From UHGV virus genome UHGV-0179803: a DNA stretch of 64,000 bases; one strand, given 5' to 3'. A program made the translations under genes and the position numbers. Under the pieces are notes generated by a model, which was given only the letters and a program-made list of their open reading frames with translations, had not been told where the DNA came from and did not search any database. Source of the DNA: a virus. Positions 4,663 to 39,637 of the stretch are shown piece after piece (positions within the stretch are counted from its first letter, which is position 1; the number at the start of each line of letters is the position of its first letter).

Positions 4663-4863
4663 ATGGATAATCCTGTTGCTAAAAACTGCAACAAGTTTAA
4701 CAAAGCTGCAACTCATGCTGATCGGAAGAAAGGTTGGTGTCCAGATTTAGACGAAGGACTTGAAGAGTACTTCGAAGATGAACTGGAAGACCTAGCAGAC
4801 AATGCTCAAGAGATTGCAATCAGGGAATATGCAGAAAGAGCGAAAGCTGCAAGAATTTGTTGA
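4663..4863 (+). CDS. hypothetical acidic protein
   Basis: ATG preceded by AAAGGAGG; internal start of track ORF 4609..4863. Confidence 0.4.
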   Translation: MDNPVAKNCNKFNKAATHADRKKGWCPDLDEGLEEYFEDELEDLADNAQEIAIREYAERAKAARIC

Positions 4864-4888
4864 CAATACCCTGTTTGTTTGGTAATAT
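4860..4888 (+). promoter_or_regulatory. sigma70-like promoter
   Basis: TTGACA-17 nt-TAATAT with TGG immediately upstream of the -10. Confidence 0.4.
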
Positions 4889-4942
4889 TAAAGCATGAGG
4901 TGAGGTAAACGATTTTAGTTTGAGAGGTCTACAGGAAATGCT

Positions 4943-5185
4943 ATGTTTAAGGTTAAGCTCGTTTTCAGATCCTTAGAAGGAGACTATTTAGAACACGAAT
5001 CTGAACACAGATTCTTTGATGATGCTTTTGAAGTTGCAAACGATATTGCCTGCGAGAACACAGGTTACGGACTGGAGTTCTGGGAAGGAGGTGCACAAAT
5101 AGATAAAAGCAAAATCTTCTATTTTTACCCGGATCCAGAATGCAGACATGTGAAATATGTGTTGTTCTTCTGTGTATTGCAATAA
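4943..5185 (+). CDS. hypothetical protein
   Basis: ORF track; RBS-like AGGAAATGCT-ATG. Confidence 0.35.
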   Translation: MFKVKLVFRSLEGDYLEHESEHRFFDDAFEVANDIACENTGYGLEFWEGGAQIDKSKIFYFYPDPECRHVKYVLFFCVLQ

Positions 5186-5222
5186 GGAGAGACATGAAAG
5201 ACGAATTTGATGGCTTTTAGCT

Positions 5223-5251
5223 TGACAATGTTGAGTTAAAACGCTATACTT
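5223..5251 (+). promoter_or_regulatory. sigma70-like promoter
   Basis: TTGACA-17 nt-TATACT. Confidence 0.45.
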
Positions 5252-5482
5252 ACAGTGTTCCCCATAGAGGGCTTGATAGTGCACCACACTGAAAAATGGT
5301 AGGAACGTAGAGGGCTACGGACGCGTAGGGTTCCAGCAACCTGTAATAAGGTCGAGTCCAAGTACGGTAATGGCTTCCCCTTTCCCTTCGAGGGCTTGAA
5401 AATGCCAGAGACGGACTGGCAATCTATTGACAATCTCCAGAGTACGTGATAAACTCAGCTTATTAACTATTCTGGAGGTTAT

Positions 5483-5830
5483 ATGGTGGACAAAAAAGAG
5501 AAAGCGAAAAAACGTCGTCGCAGGGGCAGACCCCTGAAAGAGGAATCAAACGCTATTCAACTTGATAAAAATCTTATTGAGATGAAAGAAGCGTTCATTG
5601 CAATGGTTCCAGAGGCACACAAAGTTCTCCGCGATATGATGAATAACCCCAAAACGAAAGAAAACATTCGTCAGGGCATAGCAACATACGTTCTGGAGAA
5701 AGCTGCTGCCATGCAGGAAGAGTACGACGAAATGTTCGGGGAAGAGGAAGAAGAATCTACTGTTGTAGATGCGACCCCAACACCGTTCTCTCCGTTTACT
5801 ACAGAGATTATCCCGATCAACGATCAGTAA
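5483..5830 (+). CDS. small protein with basic N-terminus (KKRRRRGRP) and acidic C-terminus; possible DNA-binding protein or small terminase subunit
   Basis: RBS GGAGG before ATG; composition only; lies upstream of the packaging genes. Confidence 0.4.
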   Translation: MVDKKEKAKKRRRRGRPLKEESNAIQLDKNLIEMKEAFIAMVPEAHKVLRDMMNNPKTKENIRQGIATYVLEKAAAMQEEYDEMFGEEEEESTVVDATPTPFSPFTTEIIPINDQ

Positions 5831-5899
5831 TCATTGTTGTGTAGCCTTGGAGAGAGAAGAGTGCTTGGGCGGTAAGCACTGGAAACACCGCTCAGTAGT

Positions 5900-6809: not shown

Positions 6810-7102
6810 GGTGGTTACTTGCATTAGCGATTGCACTCACGTTTTCTATGGCCCTGGTAGGTTGTAGCTCACCTAAAAGTACGCCAGTTACAGTTGCACC
6901 GCAGAAAGTTGAACAACTTGCTGTAGAGCCTCCTGCGGCAGCTATGATCCCACCAGCAATAGCTATCCCCTTGGTGAAAGGTGCACCAGATGCGGATAAC
7001 TCTGCAATTATGAGGCAGAACAATCTCTCCTGTAGCAATGATCGTGCCAAATTAATCATCTTGCAGGATTATGTAAAATCTTTATTCAATAAGGAGAATT
7101 AA
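6806..7102 (+). CDS. o-spanin (Rz1-like outer-membrane lipoprotein)
   Basis: signal peptide ending in lipobox LVGC, proline-rich mature part; immediately downstream of and overlapping the i-spanin gene. Confidence 0.6.
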   Translation: MRWLLALAIALTFSMALVGCSSPKSTPVTVAPQKVEQLAVEPPAAAMIPPAIAIPLVKGAPDADNSAIMRQNNLSCSNDRAKLIILQDYVKSLFNKEN

Positions 7103-8217
7103 TGGCTAAAATGTATGGCCCATGCTCCCGTAAACAACAAATGATTCTGGAAAATGATGCCGACTTCCTGATCATTGGTGGGGCAGCGGGTTGTTTGTCA
7201 ATGCGACATGAGGTGATGACACCTAACGGGTGGATCAGAATATCGGAATGGGATGGTCAAGATATCCTCCAGTTTGATAAAGAAACTGGTAAGGCCATGT
7301 TTATCCAGCCTGAAGAGTTTGTTAAGCTGGAATGCGACAAACTAACCAGGATTGTGCAGGATGGTATTTGTCAGGAATTATCCGACGAGCACACAGTTCT
7401 GTACGTCCCAGAAGACGGAACAGCTTACGGTACACTTAATTTCGGAGAAGTGGCTGAACAGTATGCTAACGGTGAGTTGGCAATGCGTATGCAGACCACG
7501 TTTGTGAACATGGGTGGTACTGGCCTTGGCATTTCTGACGAAGAGCTGAAAGAAAGGGCAAGATATTACAAATTCACAGATGAGTGGTATAATTGTGATC
7601 GTCGTCAGTTGTTGCAGATCTGGTATGAGATTTACCTGAACGGTAATGATCCCCATGCCTACGTTGTTCCAACGAAAGAACAGGCTGATTTCTTGCAATA
7701 CCTCGGATCATCTTTAGGTTTCAACGCACAGATCTTCTTCGAAGAAGGTTACAAAGTTGTGTTCTCTAATGAACGTGCAGGTACGATTGCTCTTAATAAC
7801 GATGCAACGTTCGAAGAGTTTGAGCCGGAAGATGGTTACAAATATTGTTTTGCTACCACAACAGGCTATTTTATCACCAGACTGGAAAACTGCATTGCAG
7901 TGACTGGTAACAGTGGTAAATCCTTTCTTCTACAGCTTCTCCCACTAAAGATGATAGATGACCCCAACACTTCTGTGGTGATGTTCCGTAGGACAACTCC
8001 ACAACTGGAAGGTGAAGGTGGTCTGTGGCCTAAAGCACTGAGTGTGTATCTGGATCTTCCTGAGTACATGAGGCCGAAATTCAGAGAGAAAGACCATAAG
8101 TTTACTTTTCCATATTATGATGCAAAGACGGGCAAATGGAATAAGAAAAGAGACGGAGCAGTAATCAAATACTGCCATATGGAATACGTCCAAGATAAGC
8201 TGAATCATCAAGGGTAA
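7102..8217 (+). CDS. terL: large terminase subunit, N-terminal (ATPase) part, carrying an in-frame intein-like insertion
   Basis: flanks of the insertion rejoin as IIGGAAG|SGKSFLL, a GxxxxGKS Walker A; the reading frame stops at 8217 where intron-like sequence begins. Confidence 0.65.
   Translation: MAKMYGPCSRKQQMILENDADFLIIGGAAGCLSMRHEVMTPNGWIRISEWDGQDILQFDKETGKAMFIQPEEFVKLECDKLTRIVQDGICQELSDEHTVLYVPEDGTAYGTLNFGEVAEQYANGELAMRMQTTFVNMGGTGLGISDEELKERARYYKFTDEWYNCDRRQLLQIWYEIYLNGNDPHAYVVPTKEQADFLQYLGSSLGFNAQIFFEEGYKVVFSNERAGTIALNNDATFEEFEPEDGYKYCFATTTGYFITRLENCIAVTGNSGKSFLLQLLPLKMIDDPNTSVVMFRRTTPQLEGEGGLWPKALSVYLDLPEYMRPKFREKDHKFTFPYYDAKTGKWNKKRDGAVIKYCHMEYVQDKLNHQG
7192..7911 (+). other. candidate intein (240 aa) inserted in the terminase P-loop
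   Basis: begins with Cys (CLSMRHEV...), ends with Asn followed by Ser (..IAVTGN|SGKS); removing it restores a canonical Walker A. Confidence 0.5.
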
Positions 8218-8742
8218 ACAAACCTGCCCTTCGTGCCTAATTCGGTGAAACTCCTTGACAAAAGGACAATACCGAGCTACGGTTAAAGGATTAGTTGAAA
8301 CCGAGTGTAACGACTATCCCCGATGAGTGTAGGGGAGTAGAATCACAAGCGATTGGTGATCCAAACGGCACGCCAAGGAGGGAAGAGCTAGTCTGTTCCA
8401 CATGGTAACATGTGGCGGGTGTCTTAGCACACCGCGTCGGAGTAGCGATCCGGCGGGACAAAAGTGGAATATACTTTAATATGTTTTGATGAGGGTTAAC
8501 TGGTAGCTCTCGTAAAACCTCCCTAATTGCGGGGAAATCTTTACTATTGACACCACCAACCTATTATGGTAACATAATATTGGCTTCGGAGAAATACCGA
8601 AGGTATGGTAATAGCGTGTTGATTTAGATAATCCGCAGCGAAGCATCCTGATAGGATGTGTGCTCAACGACTATCGCTTACGGGCGTTAGGGCCAAGCGG
8701 CTGGGGAAACCCACAGTCTTTTAAGACTGCCGAAACGGGAGG

Positions 8743-9036
8743 ATGGGAATGTGTAAAACTAAAAAATGTGTAGATTGCCAGAGAGTCCTACCTCTTGAGG
8801 ATTTCTTTTTATCTTCTAAGAGTAATGATGGGTACTCTGGTACATGCAAGGAATGCTATATGTACTACAGAAAGAATGGATCTCGTAGAAACAAGGATAT
8901 GGTTAAGAGAGATGATGCAGCAGCGTTTATTCAAGATTTGCTAGAGAAAGGTGAGCTTTTTGAATGCAAATCTTGTCATAAAAGTATGCTCGCTGACAAT
9001 TTTACACAAAACGTGATTATGGTAGGGTATATCTAG
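8743..9036 (+). CDS. Cys-rich zinc-finger-like protein, intron-encoded
   Basis: CVDCQ...GTCKEC and CKSCH motifs; RBS GGGAGGATGGGA-ATG; inside the intervening sequence. Confidence 0.4.
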   Translation: MGMCKTKKCVDCQRVLPLEDFFLSSKSNDGYSGTCKECYMYYRKNGSRRNKDMVKRDDAAAFIQDLLEKGELFECKSCHKSMLADNFTQNVIMVGYI

Positions 9037-9053
9037 TCACGGGCAGGTGTAAA

Positions 9054-9338
9054 ATGTGTGAGAAGTTCTATCAGCTTGAGAAGAAATTTCACATAACAAA
9101 AGACGAATATTTTCGTCTACTCTCAGATCAAGATTATAAATGTGCCATTTGCGGGATATCACTTGATGAGTATAGGTCGCAAGGGTACAGAGATTTCTTT
9201 AGTGTTGATCATGACCATAAGACTGGCGCTGTAAGAGGTTTGCTTTGTGATAAGTGTAACAGAGCTTTAGGTTTTTTCCAGGAGGATGAGGAAACTCTTC
9301 TTAAAGCGGCAGAGTATTTACACACTCATAAGATATAG
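9054..9338 (+). CDS. HNH / endonuclease VII-family homing-endonuclease-like protein
   Basis: motif CAICG...SVDHDHKTGAVRGLLCDKCNRALG matches the EndoVII/HNH signature (DHDH-x-TG-x-RG-x-LC-xx-CN). Confidence 0.7.
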   Translation: MCEKFYQLEKKFHITKDEYFRLLSDQDYKCAICGISLDEYRSQGYRDFFSVDHDHKTGAVRGLLCDKCNRALGFFQEDEETLLKAAEYLHTHKI

Positions 9339-9454
9339 TCTGGTCTGCATGGAGACATGCAGCTGCCACATGGTGGCGGGGCAAGAGTAGCGACCTTGCC
9401 CGAACACAAACGACACAGTTCGATTGGGAGCAAATCGACTACCTGATTTCTCGT

Positions 9455-10534
9455 ATGAGGTCGAAATCGAAATACTCTTCACGGATGGTGATCAGCTGTA
9501 ACCCGGATTCTGAACACTATTTAGCCAAACTGGTTCGTTGGTGGCTTGACGACGAGGGCTACCCAGATGAAAGCAAGTGTGGCGTTAAGCGCTATTTCAT
9601 CCGTAGGGATGGGGAATTTATCTTCGGCGATACGCCAGAAGAGTTGATCGAGAAGTATACCTATGTTAACGGCAAAGGTGTTGAGATAATCCCAAAACCA
9701 CTCTCTATCGCTTTTATCGGTGCAACAATCCACGATAACCCCATCTGCTTGCGTGATAACCCAGAATATCTTGCATTCCTGGAAGGTCTGCCAGAGCTGG
9801 AAAAAGCACAACTCCTCTACGGTAACTGGTTCGCTAAGCCTGAAGGTGCAAACTATTTCAGTCGCACATTCTTGAAAGATGCGGATCATGTCCCCCTCGG
9901 AGCAGTTTCTGTAAGAGCATGGGATAAAGCTGGTACAGAACGTACCTCTGGCAACAAATTCCCCGACTATACAGCCAGTATCAAGGTCAGTAAGGATAGT
10001 GATGGTTACTACTACATCTCCGGTGACTATTGCCCTGAAAACGTAGATGATGGCAGATATTCTACGGGCTTGCACGGTAAGTTCTGCAAGAAAGCTGGGG
10101 AACGTGATGTTATTATCAAGAAACAGGCAGAGTTTGATGGTGAGGACTGCGTAATTGTCTTCTCTGTGGACCCCGGTCAGGCAGGTAAGAGTGAGTTTCT
10201 TACTTCATCTCGTAAACTTCTTGCCGGAGGGTTCAGGGTAGAAGAAGACCCAATGCCGTCTAACAAATCAAAACTCACCCGTTTCTCCCCGTTTGCCAAC
10301 CTTGCCCAACAAGGGATGGTGCGGCTTGTCCGGTCAAGTTTCGACCCGGATACACTGGAAGCATTTTTGACAGAGCTGGAGAAATTTAACGGCGAACGGT
10401 CAACCTTTAGCCGTAAAGATGATTGGGCTGACTCCATTGCTTCTGCAATTAACTACCTTGAAAAAGAGGAAGTTGCTATGCCATGTGTTATTCCGAAGAT
10501 TGTTTCACCCTCTATGTATAAGAGGATGATTTAA
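9455..10534 (+). CDS. terL: large terminase subunit, C-terminal part (nuclease domain exon)
   Basis: frame is open from 9332; contains ISCNPDSEHY, RAWDKAGT and DDWADSIASA acidic motifs expected of a terminase RNase-H-like nuclease domain; true 5' end depends on the splice junction. Confidence 0.65.
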   Translation: MRSKSKYSSRMVISCNPDSEHYLAKLVRWWLDDEGYPDESKCGVKRYFIRRDGEFIFGDTPEELIEKYTYVNGKGVEIIPKPLSIAFIGATIHDNPICLRDNPEYLAFLEGLPELEKAQLLYGNWFAKPEGANYFSRTFLKDADHVPLGAVSVRAWDKAGTERTSGNKFPDYTASIKVSKDSDGYYYISGDYCPENVDDGRYSTGLHGKFCKKAGERDVIIKKQAEFDGEDCVIVFSVDPGQAGKSEFLTSSRKLLAGGFRVEEDPMPSNKSKLTRFSPFANLAQQGMVRLVRSSFDPDTLEAFLTELEKFNGERSTFSRKDDWADSIASAINYLEKEEVAMPCVIPKIVSPSMYKRMI

Positions 10535-10540
10535 GTAGTT

Positions 10541-10569
10541 GCCAATCTTAGATGAATGTGTTACAATAA
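10541..10569 (+). promoter_or_regulatory. sigma70-like promoter
   Basis: TTGCCA-17 nt-TACAAT upstream of the portal gene. Confidence 0.3.
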
Positions 10570-10634
10570 TCTATAGAGCATAACTAAGCCCTCTTCGGAG
10601 GGCTATTTCTTTTGTCTAACTTGAGGGTAATCTT

Positions 10635-12214: not shown

Positions 12215-12243
12215 TTGCATTTTAATTTGCAGTGTGGTAGAAT
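12215..12243 (+). promoter_or_regulatory. sigma70-like promoter with extended -10
   Basis: TTGCAT-17 nt-TAGAAT with TGG upstream of the -10. Confidence 0.4.
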
Positions 12244-12261: not shown

Positions 12262-12690
12262 ATGTCTACAACTGAAGAGATGATTTCATACGAGATCATC
12301 TACGAACCAAACACTAAAGATGCTCACGGCGAGTGGATGTCCGAAGAAACTCTTCGCAAAGCGAAAGAAAGCTGGGACATGGCATACGCCGCTGGCATCG
12401 CCAGAGAAAACCTTTTCCATCTCACCTCCACTGAAGCATTCACTATCGAAAAAACCTGGATTCAGGAAGAACTTGATGTGGTTGTTGCAGAAACCGGACA
12501 ACCTATCAAGGCTGGATCATGGGTAGCTAAAGTGAAATACAATAACGAAGCCTTGTGGGAAGCTAAGAAAGCTGGCATTGTCGGTGGACTAAGCATCCAG
12601 TGCACAGGCCATGTTAACGAAGAGACAGGTGAGATTACAGATATCAATTTCGGGGCCACAATCGTGGAAAATGAAGAGGGCGATGAATAA
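12262..12690 (+). CDS. head morphogenesis protein (hypothetical)
   Basis: ORF between portal and scaffold genes; RBS GAGG; overlaps the next gene (ATAATG). Confidence 0.4.
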   Translation: MSTTEEMISYEIIYEPNTKDAHGEWMSEETLRKAKESWDMAYAAGIARENLFHLTSTEAFTIEKTWIQEELDVVVAETGQPIKAGSWVAKVKYNNEALWEAKKAGIVGGLSIQCTGHVNEETGEITDINFGATIVENEEGDE

Positions 12691-16696: not shown

Positions 16697-16735
16697 CCAC
16701 ACCATTCCCGGTCTGGGGCTTTATTTTTATCAGCT
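16697..16735 (+). terminator. rho-independent terminator
   Basis: GCCCCA...TGGGGC hairpin followed by TTTATTTTTAT. Confidence 0.5.
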
Positions 16736-16754
16736 TACATGTTATAATAATTAA

Positions 16755-17456: not shown

Positions 17457-17472
17457 TTTGCTAAATTAGTAT

Positions 17473-17501
17473 TGAAAATTGTTGCAGCCTGTGGTATAAT
17501 T
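17473..17501 (+). promoter_or_regulatory. sigma70-like promoter with extended -10
   Basis: TTGAAA-17 nt-TATAAT preceded by TGTGG. Confidence 0.45.
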
Positions 17502-17518: not shown

Positions 17519-17986
17519 GTGCTTAGAGTAAAATGCACTTCTAAAACCAATTTTAAGCCGCTTGAAAGGTTCCACAGGGAACTTATTAAGTTGGAAAGTA
17601 AAACAATCTCCTATGGATTCTACGACGAAGAACATTACTCCGGCCTGAATATGGCAACACTGGCTGCAATTCATAACTTTGGCTGGAATGGTCTTCCGGT
17701 TCGTAACTTCATGGAAACTGCTTTCGTATTTTATAATGCGGAACTCTCCAAGCAGATGGAACGACTGCTCCGCGCGATGGCGCGTGGGGCAAGTCCAGAT
17801 ACTATCCTGAAGCAAATCGGTAAAGGCGGGGCTGAGGCCATTAAGTTTGTTATCGAGGCGGGGATGTTCAGCAATCCAAAGGTTAGCGAACAGTGGGCGC
17901 AAGAAAAAGGCTTTAACGAAGCTATGCGTCATTATGATGTGTTGCTTGAGTCAGCAACCTTCAAAATCGGACAATTAAAAGACTAA
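17519..17986 (+). CDS. head-tail joining/neck protein (hypothetical)
   Basis: GTG-start ORF between head and tail modules; position-based. Confidence 0.35.
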   Translation: MLRVKCTSKTNFKPLERFHRELIKLESKTISYGFYDEEHYSGLNMATLAAIHNFGWNGLPVRNFMETAFVFYNAELSKQMERLLRAMARGASPDTILKQIGKGGAEAIKFVIEAGMFSNPKVSEQWAQEKGFNEAMRHYDVLLESATFKIGQLKD

Positions 17987-18982: not shown

Positions 18983-19054
18983 TCGTTCTCCATGTAGCGT
19001 AATGATTATGCTACTTGTTAATATCCTGTGCACAAGATATTGAAGAGGAAACAA

Positions 19055-20454: not shown

Positions 20455-20928
20455 ATGGTCACAGATATTTTAACACCTTATGCATATGACCCGAAAAAGG
20501 TTCGTCTCTACTTGATGACTCAGAGAGTATTCGGTTTTGCAGCGGATACAAAAATTGTTGTTTCTCGTAACGAGGACAATATTTACCCGCATATGGGCGT
20601 GGATGGTGAACTAAGTGCAGCTTTATCCCGTAACCAATCTGGTGTAATGACTGTATCTTTACAGAACACCTCCGCATGGAACGCCTACCTGTCAGACTGG
20701 CAGAAACAAGCATCTATCACAGGTCTTGTATTCTTCCCAGTGCTGCTGGAAGGTAGCCAGGGGCCAGGCATCAGCACTATTGGCTGGATTCAGAAACAAC
20801 CTGATCTGACTTATGGTACTGAAGTTGCCCAACTTGACTGGGAAATCGGCGTACTGGATTGCTGGTTAAACAAAGACAACATCGAATCTGCAATGATGGG
20901 ACTTGCAGGTTTAACTGGTATCATTTAA
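20455..20928 (+). CDS. tail tube protein (putative)
   Basis: 157 aa after RBS AGGAGGG; followed by strong terminator. Confidence 0.45.
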   Translation: MVTDILTPYAYDPKKVRLYLMTQRVFGFAADTKIVVSRNEDNIYPHMGVDGELSAALSRNQSGVMTVSLQNTSAWNAYLSDWQKQASITGLVFFPVLLEGSQGPGISTIGWIQKQPDLTYGTEVAQLDWEIGVLDCWLNKDNIESAMMGLAGLTGII

Positions 20929-20934
20929 TGCTAC

Positions 20935-20963
20935 AGGCCACCTTCGGGTGGCCTTTCTTGTTT
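20935..20963 (+). terminator. rho-independent terminator (UUCG tetraloop)
   Basis: AGGCCACCTTCGGGTGGCCT hairpin then TTTCTTGTTT. Confidence 0.6.
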
Positions 20964-20970
20964 ATAAGGT

Positions 20971-21000
20971 TTGACAAAAGTTGGTGTTTTGTGGTATAGT
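20971..21000 (+). promoter_or_regulatory. sigma70-like promoter with extended -10
   Basis: TTGACA-18 nt-TATAGT preceded by TGTGG. Confidence 0.5.
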
Positions 21001-21033: not shown

Positions 21034-22560
21034 ATGGCTGGAAAATGTTACACTAAAAAAGAATGGCTAACAGCTGTCTTCAAAGAAAACCCTGAGTTTG
21101 AAGAAATGTACGATTACAGTCAAACTGAGTACAAAGGCAGTAGAGAAAAAGTGAGCATTATTTGCAAAAAACATGGTGCGTTTTCTGTAGAAGCAAATGC
21201 TCATAGAAAAGGAGAGGGATGCAAAGAATGCTACCTTGAGCGTAAACGTGGAAACAAGGAAGAATTCGTTGAAAAAGCTAAAGAAGTGCATGGGGTGCGT
21301 TACAACTACTCTAAGGTTGTGTATAAAGACAGAGTGACAAAAGTAGATATCATCTGCCCTGATCACGGAGTGTTCTCACAAAAACCTAGCAAACATTTGA
21401 GAGGACAGGGCTGCCCCCATTGTGCTAACATGGCTCGTGGTAGAAAAAGAAGAAACTCTTTTGAGGAAGTAGTGGAACAGGCCAAAGAGGTCCACAAAGA
21501 TAAATACGTTTACAAAGGTATGTTTTACGATGAAAGGAAGAAAGGTATTCTTAATATTAAATGTTCAAGGTGTGGATCAGAGTTCCAACAACCTGTGAAA
21601 GACCATGTACACCAAAATCATGGGTGTAGACATTGTGCAAAACTAACCTCAAGAGTGGAAGAATCTGTCTTTGACTTCATAAAAACTATCTGCCCAGACG
21701 CGGAGCAGTCTGATCGCACTATCCTGGATGATGGCAAAGAGTTAGATATCTATGTCCCATCAAAGCGTGTGGCGATTGAAGTCAATGGTATCTTCTGGCA
21801 TGGAGACAATCATAAGCCTAGGGATTATCATTACAAAAAATGGTTAGCCTGTAAAGAGAAAGGTATTCGTCTGATCCAGATCACAGATTATGATTGGAAT
21901 AACAACCAAAAAGTGTTTAGCCAGTTGCTGGCTCATGCCTTGGGGTGCAATAGTGAGCGTAAAGTGAATGCTAGGGAATGCGAAGTGGTGCATCTCAAAT
22001 CAACAGAGTGCAAAGAGTTTTACAACGCTTACCACCCACAAGGCCATTCTCCTAACCCAATTAATCTGGCCTTGAAAACGAAAGAAGGGGAAATTGTAGC
22101 GATCATGAGCTTTGGTTATGGTAAAACTACAAGGGGTCAGGCCAGAGCTAACGGTACGACTAAAGCAACATGGGAGTTATCAAGATTTGCATCAAGCTGC
22201 TCTGTTCGTGGTGGGGCATCTCGACTGTTTAAAACGTTCATCAGAGAGAACAATCCAGAAGAGGTTAGCTCATTCAGCATGAATGACTACTTCGCTGGTG
22301 GGGTTTACGAAGTGTTAGGATTTGTTGCGGAGACGTATGGCAAACCAGACTACAGAGTGTTCCATCCGTTCAGCGGGTTACGCCACAAATCATACTGGCA
22401 ACGCCGTAATATCCCGAAACGTTTGAAAGAACTGGGTAAAGAAGAATTAAACTTTGACCCAGAAATTGATCAGCGTACAGAGCGGGAGATAGAGGATTTG
22501 GTTGGTGCTATCCGGTTGTGGGACAGCGGCAAGATCAAATGGGTATGGAAAGCTGAGTAA
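21034..22560 (+). CDS. free-standing putative endonuclease: triple zinc-ribbon N-terminus plus Vsr/DUF559-like nuclease domain
   Basis: three repeats of C-x2-HG-x-F...G-x-GC-x2-C; C-terminal DIYVPSKRVAIEVNGIFWHGDNH resembles the Vsr-type D..P...AI.V.G.FWHG motif; own promoter and RBS AGGAG. Confidence 0.5.
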   Translation: MAGKCYTKKEWLTAVFKENPEFEEMYDYSQTEYKGSREKVSIICKKHGAFSVEANAHRKGEGCKECYLERKRGNKEEFVEKAKEVHGVRYNYSKVVYKDRVTKVDIICPDHGVFSQKPSKHLRGQGCPHCANMARGRKRRNSFEEVVEQAKEVHKDKYVYKGMFYDERKKGILNIKCSRCGSEFQQPVKDHVHQNHGCRHCAKLTSRVEESVFDFIKTICPDAEQSDRTILDDGKELDIYVPSKRVAIEVNGIFWHGDNHKPRDYHYKKWLACKEKGIRLIQITDYDWNNNQKVFSQLLAHALGCNSERKVNARECEVVHLKSTECKEFYNAYHPQGHSPNPINLALKTKEGEIVAIMSFGYGKTTRGQARANGTTKATWELSRFASSCSVRGGASRLFKTFIRENNPEEVSSFSMNDYFAGGVYEVLGFVAETYGKPDYRVFHPFSGLRHKSYWQRRNIPKRLKELGKEELNFDPEIDQRTEREIEDLVGAIRLWDSGKIKWVWKAE

Positions 22561-22588: not shown

Positions 22589-22593
22589 CTACA

Positions 22594-22622
22594 TTGACAA
22601 AAAGTGAGTACAATGTTATAAT
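22594..22622 (+). promoter_or_regulatory. consensus sigma70 promoter
   Basis: TTGACA-17 nt-TATAAT, spacer ends in TGT. Confidence 0.6.
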
Positions 22623-22701
22623 AAATCTATATAATAACGTGGTGGTGACAGTTGTCTAAAATCGCATATCTGAATGCTTTTCATAAGAGGATAATAAAGA
22701 A

Positions 22702-23844
22702 ATGACAGATATCTACAACGATAAAGTTGTACACGCCGAGGTGGCTCTTGGTAAAGACGCTGCATCGGGTGGCAACAGGACTTCTCTGGATAAAGAGGCT
22801 TTACGAAGTTATGTTCTTGCTGCTAGAGAGGCGGCTAACAAAGCTAAAGTGGCTTCAGAAGAGGCAGCTTTATCACGAGACGCTTCCCAAGCAAACGCTA
22901 ACAATGCATCGATTTCCGCAACCAATGCACAAGATAGTGCAGATCGTGCAGAATCAGCAGCTAACGCAGCCGAATTATCTTCCTCTTCTGCTGAGGGCAG
23001 TGCAACTGCCGCTGCCTTATCTGCAACGCAAGCATCCGCTGATGCATCTACAGCAACACAAGCAAAAGATGACGCTGTTGCAGCCTCTGGTGTGGCAACC
23101 CAACAAGCAGCAAATGCTGAATCATCTGCCGATACATCCGCTGAAAGTGCAGATGCAGCAGCAGCAAGTGCCGCTTCTGCTCAAGGATCTGCAACTTCTG
23201 CTTCCGGTTCTGCCACGACTGCAACAGAGAAAGCAACAGCAGCGAACAAATCTGCCACCGCAGCAAAAACGTCAGAGACTAATGCCAAAACCTCTGAAAC
23301 CAACGCCGCAAGCTCAGCTAGTGCAGCATCCGTTTCAGAAAGCAATGCTTCTGATTCTGCAACAGCAGCAGAGTCTTCAGCGACTTCTGCAAGATCGAGT
23401 GCTTCAAGTGCATCGACAAGCGCCAGCACAGCCACTACTAAAGCGAACGAAGCTGCAACCAGCGCCACTGATGCTGCTAACAGTGCCAAATCCGCTTCTA
23501 ATAGTGCATCAACTGCGACAACAAAAGCAGGTGAAGCAAGTAAGTCAGCAACAGATGCTGCAAATTCAGCAAGCTCTGCTTCAGCAAGCAAAGATGCTGC
23601 TGCTGCCTCAGCCAGCGCCGCAGCTACCAGCGAAACCAAAGCAAAAGCCAGTGAAACTGCTGCTGCAAGCTCTGCTTCTTCGGCAGCCACCAAAGCATCC
23701 GAGGCTGCAACATCTGCCACTAACGCAGCAAAAAGTGCATCAGACGCTGCAAATAGTGTGGAGGAGGTAAAAGCACAGTTCGAACAGCGCCTTACTGAAC
23801 TTGAGGCAAGAATTGCTGCTCTTGAGGGTGCTAAAAATAATTGA
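22702..23844 (+). CDS. Ala/Ser/Thr-rich repeat protein resembling the stalk region of side-tail-fiber (Stf-like) proteins, ending in a coiled coil
   Basis: repeats such as TAAKTSETNAKTSETNAASSASAAS and ATTKANEAATSATDAANSAKSAS resemble the repeat region of lambda-type side tail fibers; C-terminal QFEQRLTELEARIAALEG heptad segment; no receptor-binding C-terminal domain. Confidence 0.55.
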   Translation: MTDIYNDKVVHAEVALGKDAASGGNRTSLDKEALRSYVLAAREAANKAKVASEEAALSRDASQANANNASISATNAQDSADRAESAANAAELSSSSAEGSATAAALSATQASADASTATQAKDDAVAASGVATQQAANAESSADTSAESADAAAASAASAQGSATSASGSATTATEKATAANKSATAAKTSETNAKTSETNAASSASAASVSESNASDSATAAESSATSARSSASSASTSASTATTKANEAATSATDAANSAKSASNSASTATTKAGEASKSATDAANSASSASASKDAAAASASAAATSETKAKASETAAASSASSAATKASEAATSATNAAKSASDAANSVEEVKAQFEQRLTELEARIAALEGAKNN

Positions 23845-24011
23845 CACAAAAACCGCTTGATGTATTATGCCTCCAACAAACAAGTTGGGGGCTTTTGCTA
23901 TGAAACACTTTGAAGAGACTTAGGGTTGCATCTTTTGGATTATTGCAACACTGATGATCGGTCTGTTCTTTGTTGTACCTGGTGTGGAGGCTGCACGGAC
24001 TATGCACCTTG

Positions 24012-24040
24012 TTGACAAAAAGAAAGTACAATGCTATAAT
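24012..24040 (+). promoter_or_regulatory. consensus sigma70 promoter
   Basis: TTGACAAAAAGAAAGTACAATGCTATAAT, near-identical to the element at 22594. Confidence 0.55.
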
Positions 24041-24086
24041 AAACCTATGCGATAACGCATAACAACTAACTTAAGGGTAACGAGAA

Positions 24087-24551
24087 ATGCCAAACTTTAG
24101 ACCTACTACAGAAATAGATTTAGTCGGACATAACTTCATCATAACCCATTGGTCCCCGATGGTGTGTATGCATAACCTGCCAAAGATTGGTAGGATTATC
24201 GCTGTGCCGATGGGAGCTATTGGTGGTGAATTACTTAATGGTGGGAGAAATTTAGCAGAAGTGCTCCCAACAGCCTTAGTCTATCTGTTCGAACAACTTG
24301 ATGACCAATCTATTGACGAACTGTTTAAAATCCTCTTCAGCGATGTTACAGTAGACGGTGTGGACAAGGTGGATCCTGATAAACTCTTTACTGGCAATCT
24401 GTTTGCAATGCTTAAACTGGCTGGTAAGGTGCTGGAGGTAAATTACGGATCTTTTTTCACGCAAGAAGGTTTAGACGGCCTGATGTCGATGTTGCAGGGA
24501 CTGCAAATGGCGAATCAGATCAACAGTCTGGACCAGGAAACTCAGGAATAA
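24087..24551 (+). CDS. tail assembly chaperone (putative)
   Basis: 154-aa acidic protein directly upstream of the tape measure gene; position-based. Confidence 0.4.
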   Translation: MPNFRPTTEIDLVGHNFIITHWSPMVCMHNLPKIGRIIAVPMGAIGGELLNGGRNLAEVLPTALVYLFEQLDDQSIDELFKILFSDVTVDGVDKVDPDKLFTGNLFAMLKLAGKVLEVNYGSFFTQEGLDGLMSMLQGLQMANQINSLDQETQE

Positions 24552-24808: not shown

Positions 24809-24865
24809 AGCAGAGGGCTGGTTCCGAAAGGATCCGGCCCTTTTTATTACTAACCAGGAGAGAAT

Positions 24866-27226: not shown

Positions 27227-27255
27227 AGGGGCCTTTATGGCCCCTTTTCTTTTAT
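27227..27255 (+). terminator. rho-independent terminator
   Basis: AGGGGCCTTTATGGCCCCT hairpin then TTTCTTTTAT. Confidence 0.5.
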
Positions 27256-27260
27256 GTAAC

Positions 27261-27289
27261 TTGTAAAAACCACATTTCTATGGTATAAT
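27261..27289 (+). promoter_or_regulatory. sigma70-like promoter with extended -10
   Basis: TTGTAA-17 nt-TATAAT preceded by TGG. Confidence 0.5.
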
Positions 27290-27323: not shown

Positions 27324-28205
27324 ATGCCCTATACACCTGGTGTATCAACAGTGGTTGATGAGAAAGACCTGAATAAACCTCATCTGGTCAGGTCAGAAAA
27401 GGCAAAAGAAGCTGAGAAACAAACAGAGGACGTGCAGTTCACACTGTTTATCAGTGGGCTTAATTATGGTGGTCGTAACATTGAGCTGAAAGGTAAAAAC
27501 TTCACCAACGATATCGCTATCATATTTGACCAGATTGAGAATTACACTTTTGACAGAAGTATTGATAAATCCCAATTTGCAGTAGAAGATCGTGTTACAA
27601 TTTCGGATCACGCAGTGATCAAAGATGCAGTGTTCTCCTTCACAGGTAGGGTGAATACTTCCCCACACATCATCTACGAACAAAACTATATTGACAGAAA
27701 CACTGACCCAGAAAGACCAGCAGACTCTGCAAGACCTGAGGCTGCATTGCAGGCAATGGGTGAAGTCATCAAGAGAAGACAACTGGTTACATTGGTAACT
27801 GAGGAAGCTGTCCTTGAAAACTACATCGTTACCAAGTGCAGTGCGAAGAAAAGCACAGGTGAGGGAGCTGCTCTGGTGTTTGATGTTGAGCTGACAGAGT
27901 TCAGAACTTTTGTCCTCAACAAAATGGTTAATGCGACTGTCTACACCAATCCTAAAAAAATTGATAAATCAAAACAGAAAGGTGCGGTTAACGATTGCAC
28001 GAAGGATAGTAATGTTGGTAACTCAAATAATGGTCCGTATGCAGATACGACCTATACCAATGCTGCTGAGAAGTGGAACAGCCAGAAAAATATCCAGCTC
28101 AAAAATTCCGGTATGACTGTTCAGGAAGCCTATCGTCAAGAGTACGGTGGTAACTCTACAATAGTCCCCTCTGAGCAAGGTAACTACATGCATGACAACA
28201 AATAA
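27324..28205 (+). CDS. tail/baseplate protein (hypothetical)
   Basis: first gene after tape measure; RBS GGAGAGG; position-based. Confidence 0.35.
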   Translation: MPYTPGVSTVVDEKDLNKPHLVRSEKAKEAEKQTEDVQFTLFISGLNYGGRNIELKGKNFTNDIAIIFDQIENYTFDRSIDKSQFAVEDRVTISDHAVIKDAVFSFTGRVNTSPHIIYEQNYIDRNTDPERPADSARPEAALQAMGEVIKRRQLVTLVTEEAVLENYIVTKCSAKKSTGEGAALVFDVELTEFRTFVLNKMVNATVYTNPKKIDKSKQKGAVNDCTKDSNVGNSNNGPYADTTYTNAAEKWNSQKNIQLKNSGMTVQEAYRQEYGGNSTIVPSEQGNYMHDNK

Positions 28206-31717: not shown

Positions 31718-34306
31718 ATGCGTATTCAACACGGCATTGATAACGTATACCAGATGATAGAGGGGCACAGGACGTGCCTCGACAACAACACTGGCCTTAC
31801 AGTTAGCCCAACGAGTCAGAACTTTCTTGTTGATCCTGAACATCTAATCGCCAGCGGTTGGAAGGGTTCCATTATCAACAATGACTGGACGACTCCAGAG
31901 GCCCAGGCTGTGTTGATCCTGGGTTACGTAGAGGTATACAGAGCAACAGAGGATGAGTTCTGGTTAGACAGAGCTAAAACCTGCTGGGATGCTTATGCTA
32001 AACACTTAACAGATAGTTTTGCAGTAGAAGGAAAATGCAATCGTGTTTCCCACTACCCATTAACAGATGACGGTATTCCACAACACGGTGGTTTTAAAGG
32101 GGTAAACATCTCTTTCAGTGAAGGGAGAGCTAAAATACCCTCTGGCTCACCTACCTGGGGTGAGTATCTTGATATTGCAGTTATGGCTTACGATGGTGCT
32201 TTAGGCCGTAATTCTATGAATTCTGATGTGTATGCAGGTACAGATGATGCCCCAAACTGGTATGCGTCTGGTACGAAGTATCCGGTTGATTGGTACATAG
32301 CTTGGGATGGTAACCGTTACTGGGACAATGGTACTATCGCCGATACAGGACATGCTGCTTCTGAGTACGGCACTGTTCAGTTAGCCAGCACTTCGGTTAA
32401 CGGCACACATAAATTAAACTATGCAGTACGTTTACCTGTTGCGCAGGGAGGTAAAGAGATTGAACGTTATGATCCGGTGATCACTTCTCCATGTAACGTG
32501 ACAGCACCTGACCAGCCAAAGCCTGTTGACTCATTGGCGATGTGGTGTGATGCTTGCTATGCACTTTATTCAATCACTTATGAAAGCAAGTATTTTGAGG
32601 CCTATAAGAAGGCCCACAGCGAGCTATTAGCGTACTGCAACCCAAATGCCTATGATATGATTTATAGACGCACCACGGCGATGAGAGCGCCTTTTACCGA
32701 CGGTAATGTGACAATCACTGGCAACAGACCTACACTTACCCGCGATGCTGAAGGTTATATCAATGTTGGCATGGGTGCACGTAGACCGTGTGAAGTTATC
32801 CAGCAAGGTCTGACTTACAAGGTTGACAGAGATTCTTCAACTGTGATTGAGTTCGGTGGTGAGAATGTTTTGTTCCAGCCGTATTTCACTATTGACGACG
32901 GTTATGGTAAAAACATAGAGTACCGTGTCGGTGTCCCGTTTGGTGGGGCAGGTATGCAGGCTAATACTTTCGAGATCCGCGACTTTGTAAGGGTATCCCC
33001 AGAGTTTGGCGACCCCTACCTGCTGCCAAAAGAAGAGAGATTGACAGCCAGCGGTGGTGCTGTTCTGGGTATGGGCTACTCCAGCACTTTATTGGGCCAT
33101 AGTGATAACTACGCTTCACTGAACCTGTCAAGCGGTCAGGTTGTTTTTGATTTTGATGGTGTGAAAGCGCTACGTTCCATTACTTATCAATGCACAGCAG
33201 ATATTGTCAGGATTAATTTCCTTGATAAAGATGGCTGGTTATGGTATACTGATCTACATGGCACAGGTGCAAACTGGGTCACTGAAAATTTATCAATTGG
33301 TGATTTTCTGCTTGAATCTACGCAACCTAATCACTCCGCTGACGAAGTGAAACCCTTCTTTGCCAACCTGAAAGAAGTAACTCAAATTACTCTCAAACTG
33401 GCAACGACTAAGATTGGTGATGGCATTTTCAATCTATACTGTGTAAACAATTTACCAGAGTTCTTTAACTTTGTTGGTGACGTTTACATCGTAAGATTCT
33501 CAATGCATCTTTCATCCCGTGTGGCAGCAACTGCTAAACTCGGCGATTGCTATGTCACAAATTACAAATTTGACAGCTTGAACTATGCACCAGGGGCATG
33601 GCCTACAGGTAAGGTTGCCAATCCAGACAGATACCTGCTGGAAGAAAGACCTGCCTATCCGGTAGCTGGTGAACAGTACCCTGCTGTATTCTGTATGGGT
33701 GAAGAACCTACAGACCTTACAGAGCTTACGAACTGTGTTAAATTCTTGTTTGATGCTCAGCAGCAATACGCAGTCGTATTTGACACAGAAGGCCCTATCT
33801 ACACAGCCTACAACTGGCAGAAAGGTAGCCTGATTGGTGGGTTCATGATGTTGGACAATTCTAAAATGCAAAGCAGAGCATTTGTTGCTGGTTGCAGAGC
33901 ACTTTATGAATTGAAGAAAAATAGAAAACCTGTGGATGAACGTTTAGAGAAATATTGCCAGAAATGGATTGCTTTCCTGAATAGATTCCAGTCAGCGAAT
34001 AGTGGCAGATTACCCACAGATTTCAATACAACAGGTGGCTATTCCAATCAGGACAGAGGTGACAAACAATGGATCACTGCTGAATGGTTAGCTGGTTGTT
34101 GTTATGCAGGTCTTGCAGGTTACACATGGGCACAGATTGACCCGGTGATTGAAGCCTGTATGAATAACTTGCAGAAACATTATTTTGTTAACAGTACCAA
34201 TATTCTCAACGGTTGTTGGGCTAACTCGGATCCTGTAGGTTTCCACTCCGGTGAAATACTGAGAGGTCTGGGCCTTTACGCTCAATATCGCAACTTGTAT
34301 ATTTAA
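31718..34306 (+). CDS. large tail/baseplate-associated protein (hypothetical, 862 aa)
   Basis: ORF track; followed by hairpin GGAGGGCTTCGGCCCTCC before the fiber gene. Confidence 0.4.
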
Positions 34307-37300: not shown

Positions 37301-39012
37301 AAGATTTAATCAACGCCACGTTTACCTCTAAATGCGGTAACTTAGGTCAGGCTGAATTCCGTGCAACAAACAGTGCTGGTCAGATCATTGTTCGTGATAT
37401 GGCAGGTACTGCTCATAAATTCTGGAACTTTAATCCTGACGGCACTTTTAACTCACCTAGCGGTTTTGTTTGTCAGACAGGTGGTGACTGGAACAACCAG
37501 TTCGGGAACAATAACCCATGTAAAGTAATGGCTGGTAGCGCCAACGGGCCTGAAGGTTCGATGGTTGTCGGTGGGCTGTCTGTATCATTCTCTGGAAACT
37601 ATGCTTTCCAGATGGCTGGTCGCCTTGATCAGTTGTATACCAGATCCATTGAAGCTGGTAACCATAGAGCATGGAATAGGGTCTTAACTCACAAAGGTGT
37701 AGGACTTGACACTACAGACCTGGACGCTTATGATGGTACTCGTGAGGGTATTTACCACCAACAAAAAGATGCCGAATGTACATCTGGAAGGCATTACCCA
37801 GCACCATACGCTGGTACTCTAATTGTTTACCAGAACAATGCAAACAATACGAAAGGCTGCGTACAGGAGTACATCACACGTTTTGGTGACAGATATACTC
37901 GTGTTGGTAACATGGATAGAACTGGGTCCACTTTTATGTGGGAAGTTTGGCGGCATGATTCTGGTAAAGCTATCCAGCTACGCCCGAATCGTAATGTTGA
38001 TGAAACAGACAAAGAGTTGCTCATTCATGTTGGTGGTTCTGACAATCCCAGCAACAACACTAGCTTACCTGCTAATAACGCTAGACTGTTCTATTGGGGT
38101 AACGGTAATGATCGTAAGAACGTTCTGGAATTACAAATCGCAGGTACTGATGATGCCGAGCAGGGTATTTCTAATTGGGTATTCCATTGTGGTACTTTAG
38201 ATGATAACTTGCATAAATACTTCTCAGTAAACGGTAACATTAATGGTCAAACCATTACAGCAAGTAAGTTCATGACTACGGACGGTACTGACCTCGCTGC
38301 TGGAGCAGGTGTTCCAGTCGGTGTTCCGCTACCGTGGCCTACTGACACAGCACCTGACGGTTATGTTATCATGGCTGGGCAGGAATTTGATAAAGCTGCT
38401 TACCCCCAATTGGCTGCTGCGTATCCGAGTGGGGTTCTCCCTGACATGCGTGGTCAGACCATTAAAGGTAAACCAGCCACTGGTCGTACTGTTCTGTCAA
38501 CCGAAGCTGACGGTGTGAAATCCCACACCCACGGTGCAAGTTCCAACAGTGTGGATCTTGGTACTAAAACTACCTCTGGGTTTGACTATGGTAGTAAAGA
38601 CACCAGTGAGAGCGGTTGGCACGGTCACGGCCTCAGTGGTAGTGTTGCTTCTGGTGGTGCTCACCAACACGTAAGATCTGGTCCCCGCACGATAGGTAGT
38701 TTTGCTGACGATGTTTTTGCAGACGGGTATACTCTTGAAAGTGCAAACGCCTATGGTAAACTCACCCAGTATGGGTCAGGTACAGCTGCAACAAAAGTAG
38801 CCAAAACATCTAACGATGGTGCCCACAGTCACACCATGAGTGGTGCTTCTATCAGCGGAGCTGGGAATCACACCCACACAGTGGGTATTGGTTCACACAG
38901 CCATACGGTAGGTATTGGTGCTCACAGCCACACAATCACAGTTAATAGCACGGGTAACACGGAAAACACTGTTAAAAACGTGGCATTTAACTACATTGTG
39001 CGTTTAGCGTAA
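34342..39012 (+). CDS. long tail fiber protein with lambda Stf / T4 gp37-type distal domain
   Basis: C-terminus PLPWPTD...[43 protein letters not shown]...SHTHG...GAHSHT...[47 protein letters not shown] matches the His-x-His repeat receptor-binding tip of lambda Stf-type fibers; RBS AGGAGAAACA. Confidence 0.8.
36031..36530 (+). repeat. tandem internal duplication (~100 codons) within the tail fiber gene
   Basis: [51 protein letters not shown] repeated as [51 protein letters not shown]; also seen at nucleotide level. Confidence 0.7.
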
Positions 39013-39095
39013 CAGAAAGGAGAGGATTGCATGAGAACGTTAATCCTCTCTGCTGTTGCAGAGATTAACAAATGCTTCAATCATGAGGGTTAATT

Positions 39096-39551
39096 ATGGC
39101 TTTTGAAATGTCAGATGAAATGCAAGTTGTTCACGTTTACAATGTGACAAATGACACATTTGCCTTCGTGGACGAAGCAGATGTACAAATTCCACCACAC
39201 ACTGGGTTGCCTGCACTGTGCACAACAATTGCTCCACCAGATGTAATCCCTGAAGGCCAGATGGCAATCTTTGATTTTGAGTTGGAAGAGTGGACTCTGG
39301 TGGATTATTTTGATGAAGCAATGGAAGCTGCAATTATGCCTCTGTCTTTGGAAATGGAAGAACCGGAGATTGCAGAGCCAAGCGCAGAACAATTAATGAT
39401 TGCAGAGCAGGAAGCTAAGCTGATTGAAGCACAGAACAGGATTGCTGAGCTGGAAGAACAAGTGGCGAGTTTGCAACGTGTGAACGACCTTGAGAAAAAT
39501 CTTGAGGAGCTTACTCGTATGGTTGAAAAACTGCGTAACAAGGAAGAATAA
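39096..39551 (+). CDS. tail fiber assembly protein (Tfa-like N-terminal domain) with coiled-coil C-terminus
   Basis: N-terminus MAFEMSDEMQVVHVYNVTNDTFAFVDEADVQIPPHTGLPA resembles lambda Tfa / T4 gp38-family N-terminal domain; directly follows the fiber gene. Confidence 0.65.
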   Translation: MAFEMSDEMQVVHVYNVTNDTFAFVDEADVQIPPHTGLPALCTTIAPPDVIPEGQMAIFDFELEEWTLVDYFDEAMEAAIMPLSLEMEEPEIAEPSAEQLMIAEQEAKLIEAQNRIAELEEQVASLQRVNDLEKNLEELTRMVEKLRNKEE

Positions 39552-39576
39552 AATTTAAGTTTCTCCTGATACATTA

Positions 39577-39598
39577 CCCCGCTTCGGCGGGGTTTTTT
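39577..39598 (+). terminator. rho-independent terminator (UUCG tetraloop)
   Basis: CCCCGCTTCGGCGGGG then TTTTTTG. Confidence 0.6.
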
Positions 39599-39608
39599 GT
39601 ATCTGTAA

Positions 39609-39637
39609 TTGACTATTTCGCTGTTTTTTGGTAAAAT
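39609..39637 (+). promoter_or_regulatory. sigma70-like promoter with extended -10
   Basis: TTGACT-17 nt-TAAAAT preceded by TGG. Confidence 0.4.

Follow-up and report, generated by a model that had tools for sequence, protein, structure and literature searches.

Extended -10 promoters of the host sigma-70 type in the late module of an undescribed rV5 relative, and their terminator-promoter units at sites of gene exchange

Gene content of the window

This study deals with a set of putative promoters in a stretch of 64,000 nucleotides (nt) of the virus genome UHGV-0179803, about half of that genome, which is called the window here. The original prediction had reported at least nine sigma-70 promoters before structural genes, nearly all of them with a TGn triplet directly upstream of the -10 hexamer (an extended -10 element) and many of them paired with terminators that carry a UUCG tetraloop. 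It had suggested that the late genes would need neither a phage-specific sigma factor nor a distinct late promoter.

The virion module lies on the + strand, ends near 55.1 kb and, according to PHROG searches, encodes a complete myophage set in the order split large terminase (7102-8217, 9455-10534), portal, protease, major head protein, sheath, tube, chaperone, tape measure, baseplate and fibres. This order is colinear with that of JES2013 and rV5, and the - strand of the region 55.3-64 kb is the counterpart of rV5 genes 11-26. The major head (capsid) protein shares 90% amino acid (aa) identity with those of Vequintavirus phages, and the protein encoded after the tape measure gene is only 69% identical. 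At the DNA level, the window could be aligned to phages only across 650 bp of the tape measure gene (~79% identity), and a megablast search with 10 kb against 50,697 phage records found no close isolate (7% coverage, ~79% identity). The high identity of the head protein, the scant DNA match and the colinear gene order therefore indicate that the window comes from an undescribed, roughly genus-level relative of rV5 (Vequintavirus) inside the Vequintavirinae. It contains the late (virion) module and the adjoining early-type regions.

Promoters and terminators of the virion module

All nine predicted sites were found, each with a -35 hexamer resembling TTGACA 16-18 nt before the -10. Two of the reported positions were off by one (TTGACA begins at 5222 and TTGAAA at 17472). 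The spacer is 17 nt long at the listed sites with the sole exception of 20971 (18 nt), and TGn directly precedes the -10 at eight of the nine, the site at 5222 having CGC instead. Our initial promoter scan missed site 12215 because only the TTG of its -35 (TTGCAT) matches the consensus. The predicted features of the left region and the virion module are the following (-35 hexamer, spacer length in nt, TGn at the end of the spacer, -10 hexamer):

4860-4888 (+): promoter TTGACA-17-TGG-TAATAT, before a small open reading frame (ORF) at 4943-5185; orthologue of rV5 P075/ORF75, with the shared leader GAGGTCTACAGG.AATGCTATG
5222-5250 (+): promoter TTGACA-17-TATACT without TG, followed by a conserved non-coding stretch and no gene; not conserved in rV5 or JES2013
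5427-5455 (+): promoter TTGACA-17-TGA-TAAACT, before ORF 5483-5830; rV5 P074 orthologue, outside the original list
8547-8575 (+): promoter TTGACA-17-TGG-TAACAT, within the second group I intron of the large terminase gene (terL), before the intron ORFs (endonuclease VII-like, 9054-9338); conserved in JES2013
10539-10567 (+): portal promoter TTGCCA-17-TGT-TACAAT, orthologue of the rV5 'late' promoter P064, 5' of the terminator hairpin 10587-10604
12215-12243 (+): promoter TTGCAT-17-TGG-TAGAAT, before the prohead protease gene 12262-12690
16720-16748 (+): extended -10 promoter TGT-TATAAT-A with a weak -35 (TTTATT), right after terminator 16706-16718; outside the original list
17472-17500 (+): promoter TTGAAA-17-TGG-TATAAT, before the neck/tail-completion gene 17519-17986; rV5 P056 orthologue
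20935-20954 (+): terminator AGGCCACC-UUCG-GGUGGCCU, after the tail tube gene 20455-20928; shared by the four siblings and, with an altered stem, by rV5 (t052)
20971-21000 (+): promoter TTGACA-18-TGG-TATAGT, before a free-standing homing endonuclease gene 21034-22560
22565-22582 (+): terminator AAGCCUC-UUCG-GAGGCUU, after the homing endonuclease gene
22594-22639 (+): upstream copy of a 46-nt promoter repeat, TTGACA-17-TGT-TATAAT (12/12), before the fibre-like ORFan 22702-23844
22640-24011 (+): insert relative to siblings L088/L089, comprising a leader, the fibre-like gene 22702-23844, terminator 23869-23892 and a spacer of ~120 nt
24012-24057 (+): downstream copy of the promoter repeat, TTGACA-17-TGC-TATAAT (12/12), before the tail assembly chaperone gene 24087-24551; orthologue of the annotated rV5 P51
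27227-27245 and 27261-27289 (+): terminator and promoter TTGTAA-17-TGG-TATAAT, between the tape measure gene and gene 27324-28205; orthologues of rV5 t049 and P048, the -35 TTGTAA being identical in rV5
39576-39593 and 39609-39637 (+): terminator ACCCCGC-UUCG-GCGGGGU and promoter TTGACT-17-TGG-TAAAAT-A, before the baseplate-wedge-like gene 39672-41162; rV5 P036 orthologue
45974-46002 (+): promoter TTGCAT-17-TGC-TAAAAT-A, before gene 46032-47096; outside the original list, probably the equivalent of rV5 P030
55113-55131: bidirectional terminator GGGGGCC-TTGGT-GGCCCCC, which closes the late module and matches the position of rV5 t026/t027 between genes 26 and 27

The claim that these promoters precede structural genes stood for five of the listed sites. 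The other four are followed by a small ORF (4860), a conserved non-coding stretch (5222), the homing endonuclease gene (20971) and an inserted ORFan (22594).

A motif search of the whole window under a strict rule (at least 10 of 12 consensus matches plus TG) returned 16 sites on the + strand and 4 on the - strand, compared with 0.70 and 0.56 expected per strand from 100 dinucleotide shuffles. Thus, 20 sites stand against about 1.3 expected. All 20 point in the direction of the local genes, and 18 have a 17-nt spacer. Looser scans (at least 9 of 12) gave only modest enrichment (50 against 35.8, 42 against 33.2 and 39 against 37.3), and hence the signal resides in the strong sites. Two intragenic look-alikes, at 30005 and 37706, were rejected as promoters: they are not conserved, decay at synonymous positions and look like chance matches.

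The near-identity of the promoters at 22594 and 24012 was borne out, with 33 of 37 positions matching, or 39 of 46 when the comparison is extended to 22594-22639 and 24012-24057. Both recurring terminators were also located on the two strands. GGCCACCTTCGGGTGGCC occurs at 20936-20953 (+) and 55996-55979 (-), and the identity spans 37 nt (34/37) including the non-structural flanks. CCCCGCTTCGGCGGGG occurs at 39577-39592 (+) and 59479-59464 (-), with 96% identity over 23 nt. Perfect hairpins of the C(UUCG)G type with a stem of at least 5 bp number nine in the window, against 0.39 expected. A terminator and a promoter share one short intergenic region at 16706-16748, 20935-21000, 22565-22622, 27227-27289 and 39576-39637. 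The order is different at the portal gene, where the promoter precedes the hairpin that ends the terminase unit, so that its transcript would reach the hairpin at about +13 to +30, where the hairpin might attenuate it or stabilise its 5' end. The same order is seen in rV5 (P064, then t064ABC).

Correspondence with the promoters predicted in rV5

The core observation, as well as the inference drawn from it, is already published for rV5 on purely computational grounds. In this family, such promoters are nothing out of the ordinary. Kropinski et al. (2013, Virol J 10:76) predicted the rV5 promoters in silico, extended -10 elements included, and argued from their genome-wide distribution that a T4-like modification of the host polymerase 'might not occur'. 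They reported no homologues of gp33, gp45 or gp55 and described eight copies of the motif TggTAaAAtA before late genes, which MEME had derived from late upstream regions only. Promoters P064, P056, P051, P048, P036, P075 and P074 in their Table S4 are the orthologues of window sites 10539, 17472, 24012, 27261, 39609, 4860 and 5427, and several of them (e.g. P75 and P51) are annotated in the rV5 GenBank record DQ832317. Hence, five of the nine originally listed sites are orthologues of published rV5 promoters (P056, P051, P048, P036 and P075). The late motif TggTAaAAtA is found in the window before the orthologous late genes, at 10559, 17492, 24032, 27281 and 39629 (portal, neck, chaperone, the gene after the tape measure gene and the gp36-like gene, respectively).

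The window and rV5 thus have a common genome architecture, with promoters in syntenic positions, and share the extended -10 elements, the late motif and UUCG hairpin terminators, two of which are identical (CCCCGCTTCGGCGGGG is t003 and GCCCTCTTCGGAGGGC is t122). The window represents another lineage, however, as its proteins are 69-90% identical and its DNA is mostly unalignable by megablast. It also has extra genes bounded by promoters and terminators, both between the tube and chaperone genes and at 55-60 kb. The promoter between the portal and protease genes (12215) is missing from the rV5 list, although the sequence is present in rV5.

Selection on the promoter elements

We compared the syntenic intergenic regions of rV5, JES2013, TH18 (unclassified Vequintavirinae), PVP-SE1 (Seunavirus) and CR8 (Certrevirus) with those of the window. 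Across genera, the TTG of the -35, the TG and TAaAAT have been preserved, in contrast to the spacers and flanks, which have wholly diverged. The region between portal and protease reads TTGCAa-N17-TGnTAaAATA in all five comparison genomes, and the region before the neck gene reads TTGnTT-N17-TGGTAAAATA in every compared genome. Downstream of the tape measure gene and ahead of the gp36-like gene, TGnTAAAATA is present in every compared genome, and the TTG is retained in the window and Vequintavirus but weaker elsewhere.

A total of 29 syntenic late sites were aligned with TGNTANAAT as the only anchor, and 58 other TGNTANAAT matches in the same sequences served as controls. Besides the anchor, only T, T and G at -23 to -21 and an A immediately 3' of the -10 were informative; the spacer was not. 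TTG was located exactly 17 nt upstream at 23 of the 29 late sites, compared with 7 of the 58 controls (p = 7.5e-10; as the syntenic sites are related by descent, p-values are indicative only), and it was lacking only at some of the CR8, PVP-SE1 and TH18 sites. The A after the -10 was present at 24/29 late sites and 13/58 controls, and the TG at all syntenic late sites. Furthermore, in four sibling genomes from IMG/VR (L087-L090; 95-96% protein identity), substitutions hit the spacers and spare the hexamers. Siblings of the window have the IMG/VR identifiers IMGVR_UViG_3300045988_140627, _157310, _159287 and _133607.

Since the hexamers are kept while the spacers are scrambled, and the sites are enriched and co-oriented with the genes, the interpretation of the intergenic sites as functional promoters of the host primary-sigma type is well supported by these sequence comparisons. 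We infer that they are used by the host sigma-70 holoenzyme (E-sigma70).

Early and late promoters

In the early-type regions (1-6.4 kb and the - strand), promoters combine a perfect TTGACA with a weak -10 (mean of 4.3 out of 6), whereas those of the late module have a weaker -35, a near-consensus -10 (5.6/6) and a trailing A. Under one selection rule, the two groups differed with Mann-Whitney p = 0.0014 and 0.03. In its sequences, a late subclass TTGnnn-N17-TGnTAaAAT-A is recognisable, as a temporally regulated class would look. Therefore, the inference that no phage factor is needed is only partly supported. The comparative evidence upheld the reading of the sites as host-type, functional promoters. 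The late sequences are compatible with unaided E-sigma70, but they also resemble a class that a phage factor might promote by abolishing recognition of the -35.

A T4-type late promoter was ruled out, as TATAAATA does not occur on the + (late) strand and the TTG at -35 is conserved. The late promoters of T4, which consist of TATAAATA and depend on gp55, gp33 and gp45, resemble those of the window in having an A+T-rich, -10-like core with a trailing A, a likeness that the rV5 authors noted. They differ in that the late strand of the window has the TG and the -35 TTG. The Thermus phage P23-45 (Tagami et al. 2014) has middle/late promoters that likewise rely on TGn and a strong -10, and it uses the host primary sigma throughout. 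However, the promoters of P23-45 have no discernible -35, whereas 23 of the 29 syntenic sites here keep the TTG at exactly 17 nt, so the window sites do not belong to a class lacking the -35. In addition, no protein resembling its gp39 or the AsiA of T4 was identified in a Pfam scan of ten early-strand ORFs of the window.

Promoters at the joints of gene gain, loss and replacement

In rV5, JES2013 and the Vequintavirus contigs L091 and L092, the tube gene is directly followed by a terminator, promoter P51 and the chaperone gene. The window has two genes between tube and chaperone. One of them encodes a homing endonuclease of 508 aa, ~40% identical to endonucleases of Xanthomonas phages, and the other a fibre-like protein of 380 aa, which is an ORFan. 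The fibre-like gene had no tblastn match in the 50,697 phage records. Its product reached at most 47% identity in IMG/VR, in an unrelated context, and found no close relative among 5.8 billion proteins, the best E-value of 6e-18 reflecting coiled-coil or fibre-like similarity alone.

Siblings L088 and L089 have the endonuclease, lack the fibre-like gene and contain a single promoter copy, to which both window copies (22594-22639 and 24012-24057) align. The duplicated promoter is therefore a direct repeat that flanks an indel of 1418 bp, one repeat copy included. The single copy of L088 is a 1-2-1-2 mosaic of the two window copies. Siblings L087 and L090 carry different endonucleases at the same place (32% aa identity). 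Their homology to the window breaks off just past the TTGACA at 20971 and is regained at that of promoter 24012, with the promoter hexamers kept and the spacers unrelated to those of the window.

Two further events were found on the - strand. Sibling L096 lacks 58327-55542, a segment that comprises three transfer RNA (tRNA) genes, a small endonuclease VII-like ORF and a YadA-like adhesin gene that has a promoter and a terminator to itself. The junction in L096 lies inside a promoter, where the tRNA promoter of the window (58377) is fused directly to the gene that follows promoter 55558. L097 and L098 lack 59837-59417, which contains two small ORFs and the second CCCCGCTTCGGCGGGG terminator, and their junction lies between the -35 of promoter 59877 and the -10 of promoter 59416. 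On this strand, both recurring terminators sit inside variable cassettes. The predicted features of this region are:

55531-55558 (-): promoter TTGACA-16-TATAAT (12/12), the right-hand joint of the 2.8-kb tRNA/adhesin cassette absent in L096
55978-55997 (-): second copy of the tube terminator, 37 nt with flanks (34/37), after the YadA-like adhesin gene 56013-57596 (-) and inside the variable cassette
57634-57662 (-): promoter TTGACA-17-TGG-TATATT, before the YadA-like adhesin gene
58348-58377 (-): promoter TTGACA...TATAA(AA)T, before the tRNA cluster 58323-58080; the left-hand joint of the 2.8-kb cassette
59388-59416 (-): promoter TTGACA-17-TGG-TATAAA, before the rV5 gp20 homologue; the right-hand joint of the ~420-bp cassette absent in L097 and L098
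59459-59484 (-): second copy of terminator ACCCCGC-UUCG-GCGGGGU, inside the variable cassette 59417-59837
59849-59877 (-): promoter TTGACA-17-TGT-TAAGAT, the left-hand joint of the 59417-59837 cassette

In all, the four indel or replacement events have all eight of their breakpoints inside promoters. As promoters make up a few per cent of the compared DNA, we do not attribute this to chance. Judging from these alignments, the duplicated promoter and the recurring terminators are footprints of modular shuffling and not a design for late transcription. The 'reused promoter cassette' of the original prediction is thus better described as a recombination footprint that flanks an inserted gene.

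This behaviour most closely resembles, by analogy, the modular shuffling mediated by the PeSLs (promoter-early stem-loop cassettes) of T4-like phages (Arbiol et al. 2010; Comeau et al. 2014). PeSLs are likewise compact units of a strong sigma-70-like promoter and a terminator stem-loop, which lie at the boundaries of insertions, deletions and replacements between close genomes and flank ORFans and genes of the homing endonuclease type. There, too, the differences are explained by recombination between copies. In the window, however, the stem-loop is located upstream of the promoter and does not overlap with it, and two of the events fall within the conserved virion module of a phage that is not T4-like, rather than in hyperplastic early regions. 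The repeats are also only pairwise within the 64 kb, compared with about 50 copies in the PeSL family. A search of IMG/VR with the 37-nt promoter cassette returned single copies in only two sibling contigs and no dispersed repeat family. Our literature search found no link of PeSLs to Vequintavirinae.

Other features

The large terminase gene is split by two putative group I introns at 8169-8415 and 8461-9362 (Rfam RF00028; E = 2.7e-7 and 2.9e-10, both just below the gathering score). The second carries the endonuclease VII-like ORF 9054-9338 and the internal promoter at 8547. The terL gene of rV5 is annotated in three pieces, as in the window. Near position 26104 in the tape measure gene, siblings L088-L090 have an insertion of ~826 bp (about 7960-8790 in these genomes) that is absent from the window and could be an intron, an intein or an endonuclease.

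The non-coding stretch downstream of promoter 5222 (roughly 230 nt; 5257-5426), near a tRNA-Arg gene, contains long blocks that are identical in rV5 and JES2013 (GAGGGCTTGATAGTGCACCACACT, CAACCTGTAATAAGGTCGAG and CGGTAATGG), separated by variable hairpins with apparently compensatory changes. It had no match in Rfam, and its minimum free energy was not better than that of shuffled sequences (z-score of +1.05). It may be a small stable RNA. Further to the left, four tandem hairpins AAGGGCC-ATTATTT-GGCCCTT lie between small ORFs at 2129-2249 with a spacing of 32-33 nt, and could form a multi-terminator, iterons or a protein-binding array.

A hairpin at 18994-19014 before the sheath gene is conserved, with compensatory differences in rV5. 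A second hairpin, at 24815-24840 between the genes for the chaperone and the tape measure protein, is terminator-like, occurs in every genus compared and may be an attenuator that sets the ratio of chaperone to tape measure protein. Within the tail protein gene 31718-34306, the consensus site TTGATA-17-TGG-TATACT at 33222-33250 has in the Vequintavirus contig L091 a -35 improved to TTGACA and a -10 changed to TATGCT. It may be an internal promoter or may reflect conservation of the coding sequence alone. Further consensus sites were noted at 7565 and 43551.

The YadA-like protein of the - strand (527 aa; 56013-57596) is a trimeric autotransporter adhesin with a membrane anchor domain (PF03895, E = 4.7e-18) in a myophage of the virulent type. 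Its gene, which sibling L096 lacks, comes with a promoter (57662) and a terminator of its own. The - strand ORF 63539-63988 (149 aa visible), at the window's edge, is homologous to the C-terminal third of rV5 gp11, the 'Srd-like anti-sigma factor', with 75% aa identity over residues 210-310 (window 63542-63844).

Discussion

With a probability of about 0.72, we favour the reading in which the listed sites of this rV5 relative are part of a set of over 20 host-type (primary sigma) promoters, each with TTG(aca) at -35, a spacer of 17 nt, TGn and TAnAAT, and in which the late module has insulated transcription units and terminator-promoter joints for gene shuffling. Most promoters of the late module are located directly 3' of a G+C-rich, often UUCG-looped intrinsic terminator, an arrangement that would divide the virion genes among at least eight short transcription units, each insulated and with a promoter of its own. 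The host polymerase with sigma-70 would most likely recognise TGnTAaAAT by region 2/3 contacts, aided by the partial -35. The same terminator-promoter units would act as joints for gene gain, loss and replacement, with short promoter homology flanking the ORFan fibre-like gene, the alternative homing endonucleases, the tRNA/adhesin cassette and the small-ORF cassette. Because each cassette would bring its own promoter and terminator, its insertion into an operon would not be polar.

Several points weigh against this picture. Late and early promoters show systematic differences, and the late ones retain an A behind the -10 for which sigma-70 has no need. The syntenic sites cannot be treated as statistically independent, and some of those in CR8 and PVP-SE1 have no usable -35. 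It is unusual for a productive promoter to precede a terminator hairpin, as the portal promoter does. The indels could be gains or losses, and the L088 copy is a mosaic. Finally, our literature search for 5' ends, transcript mapping or in vitro transcription of Vequintavirinae promoters found nothing.

The opposite extreme, that the sites are functionless chance matches to an A+T-rich consensus, could appeal to the loose scans, which are only modestly enriched, and to the look-alikes at 30005 and 37706. We consider it effectively refuted by the 20 strong, co-oriented sites with TG where 1.3 were expected, by the conservation of hexamers amid scrambled spacers and by the avoidance of hexamers by sibling substitutions. 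The late sites might instead form a distinct, phage-regulated class, in which an early phage protein shifts the specificity of host RNA polymerase. This could happen by blocking sigma region 4 or the beta-flap, which would turn -35-dependent early promoters off and leave extended -10 promoters on, as P23-45 gp39 and T4 AsiA do, or through an unrecognised activator or sigma-like factor. The contrast between early and late hexamers, the frequent trailing A and the conservation of the TGnTAAAATA core in all four genera, even where the -35 is lost, are in line with such a switch, as are the precedent of P23-45 and the derivation of the rV5 motif from late upstream regions alone. Nevertheless, a mechanism independent of the -35 would have no use for a TTG conserved at a fixed 17 nt, and TGn is also found on many early promoters. 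Moreover, gp33, gp45 and gp55 homologues are unreported in rV5, the Pfam scan of the ten early-strand ORFs revealed no AsiA, sigma or anti-sigma domain, and the 'Srd-like anti-sigma' protein of rV5 resembles T4 Srd, a protein for which stimulation of RNase E is now described. We regard a regulated class as unlikely. The same low odds apply to the broader idea of an enterobacterial myophage that has no phage sigma and retunes E-sigma70 by a gp39/AsiA-like switch, its promoter-terminator units doubling as portable recombination joints for foreign genes that enter the virion operon.

As for the history of the joints, the two-copy arrangement could be ancestral and the siblings could have lost the intervening genes by recombination between repeats. 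Direct repeats of 33-46 nt flank each variable segment and are a suitable substrate for deletion, and each single-copy junction combines parts of the left and the right copy. On the other hand, both the endonuclease and the fibre-like gene are lacking between tube and chaperone in the outgroups rV5, JES2013, L091 and L092. The fibre-like gene is also missing from all four siblings and from the phage records searched, its product has no close homologue in the protein collection, and the 1-2-1-2 mosaic of L088 is not the product of a single crossover. Deletion is thus a minority possibility, somewhat less improbable than the regulated promoter class. Since outgroups and siblings are without the fibre-like gene, gain in the lineage of the window appears more parsimonious for the insertions between tube and chaperone.

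The favoured reading, host-type promoters in insulated units that double as joints, changes the picture of transcription little. The rV5 pattern holds in a further lineage, and comparative evidence for selection on the -35 TTG, the TG and the -10 is added. The clear difference between early and late promoters makes the hypothesis of a temporal switch testable in a phage group that is widely used for biocontrol and therapy. Modestly new is the indication that terminator-promoter units are the recombination seams of this lineage, the virion module included, where siblings would exchange genes for homing endonucleases, a fibre-like protein (an ORFan), tRNAs and a YadA-like adhesin. The PeSL idea would thereby be extended beyond the T4-like phages and into the virion module, and the seams may be natural sites for non-polar insertions in the engineering of these phages.

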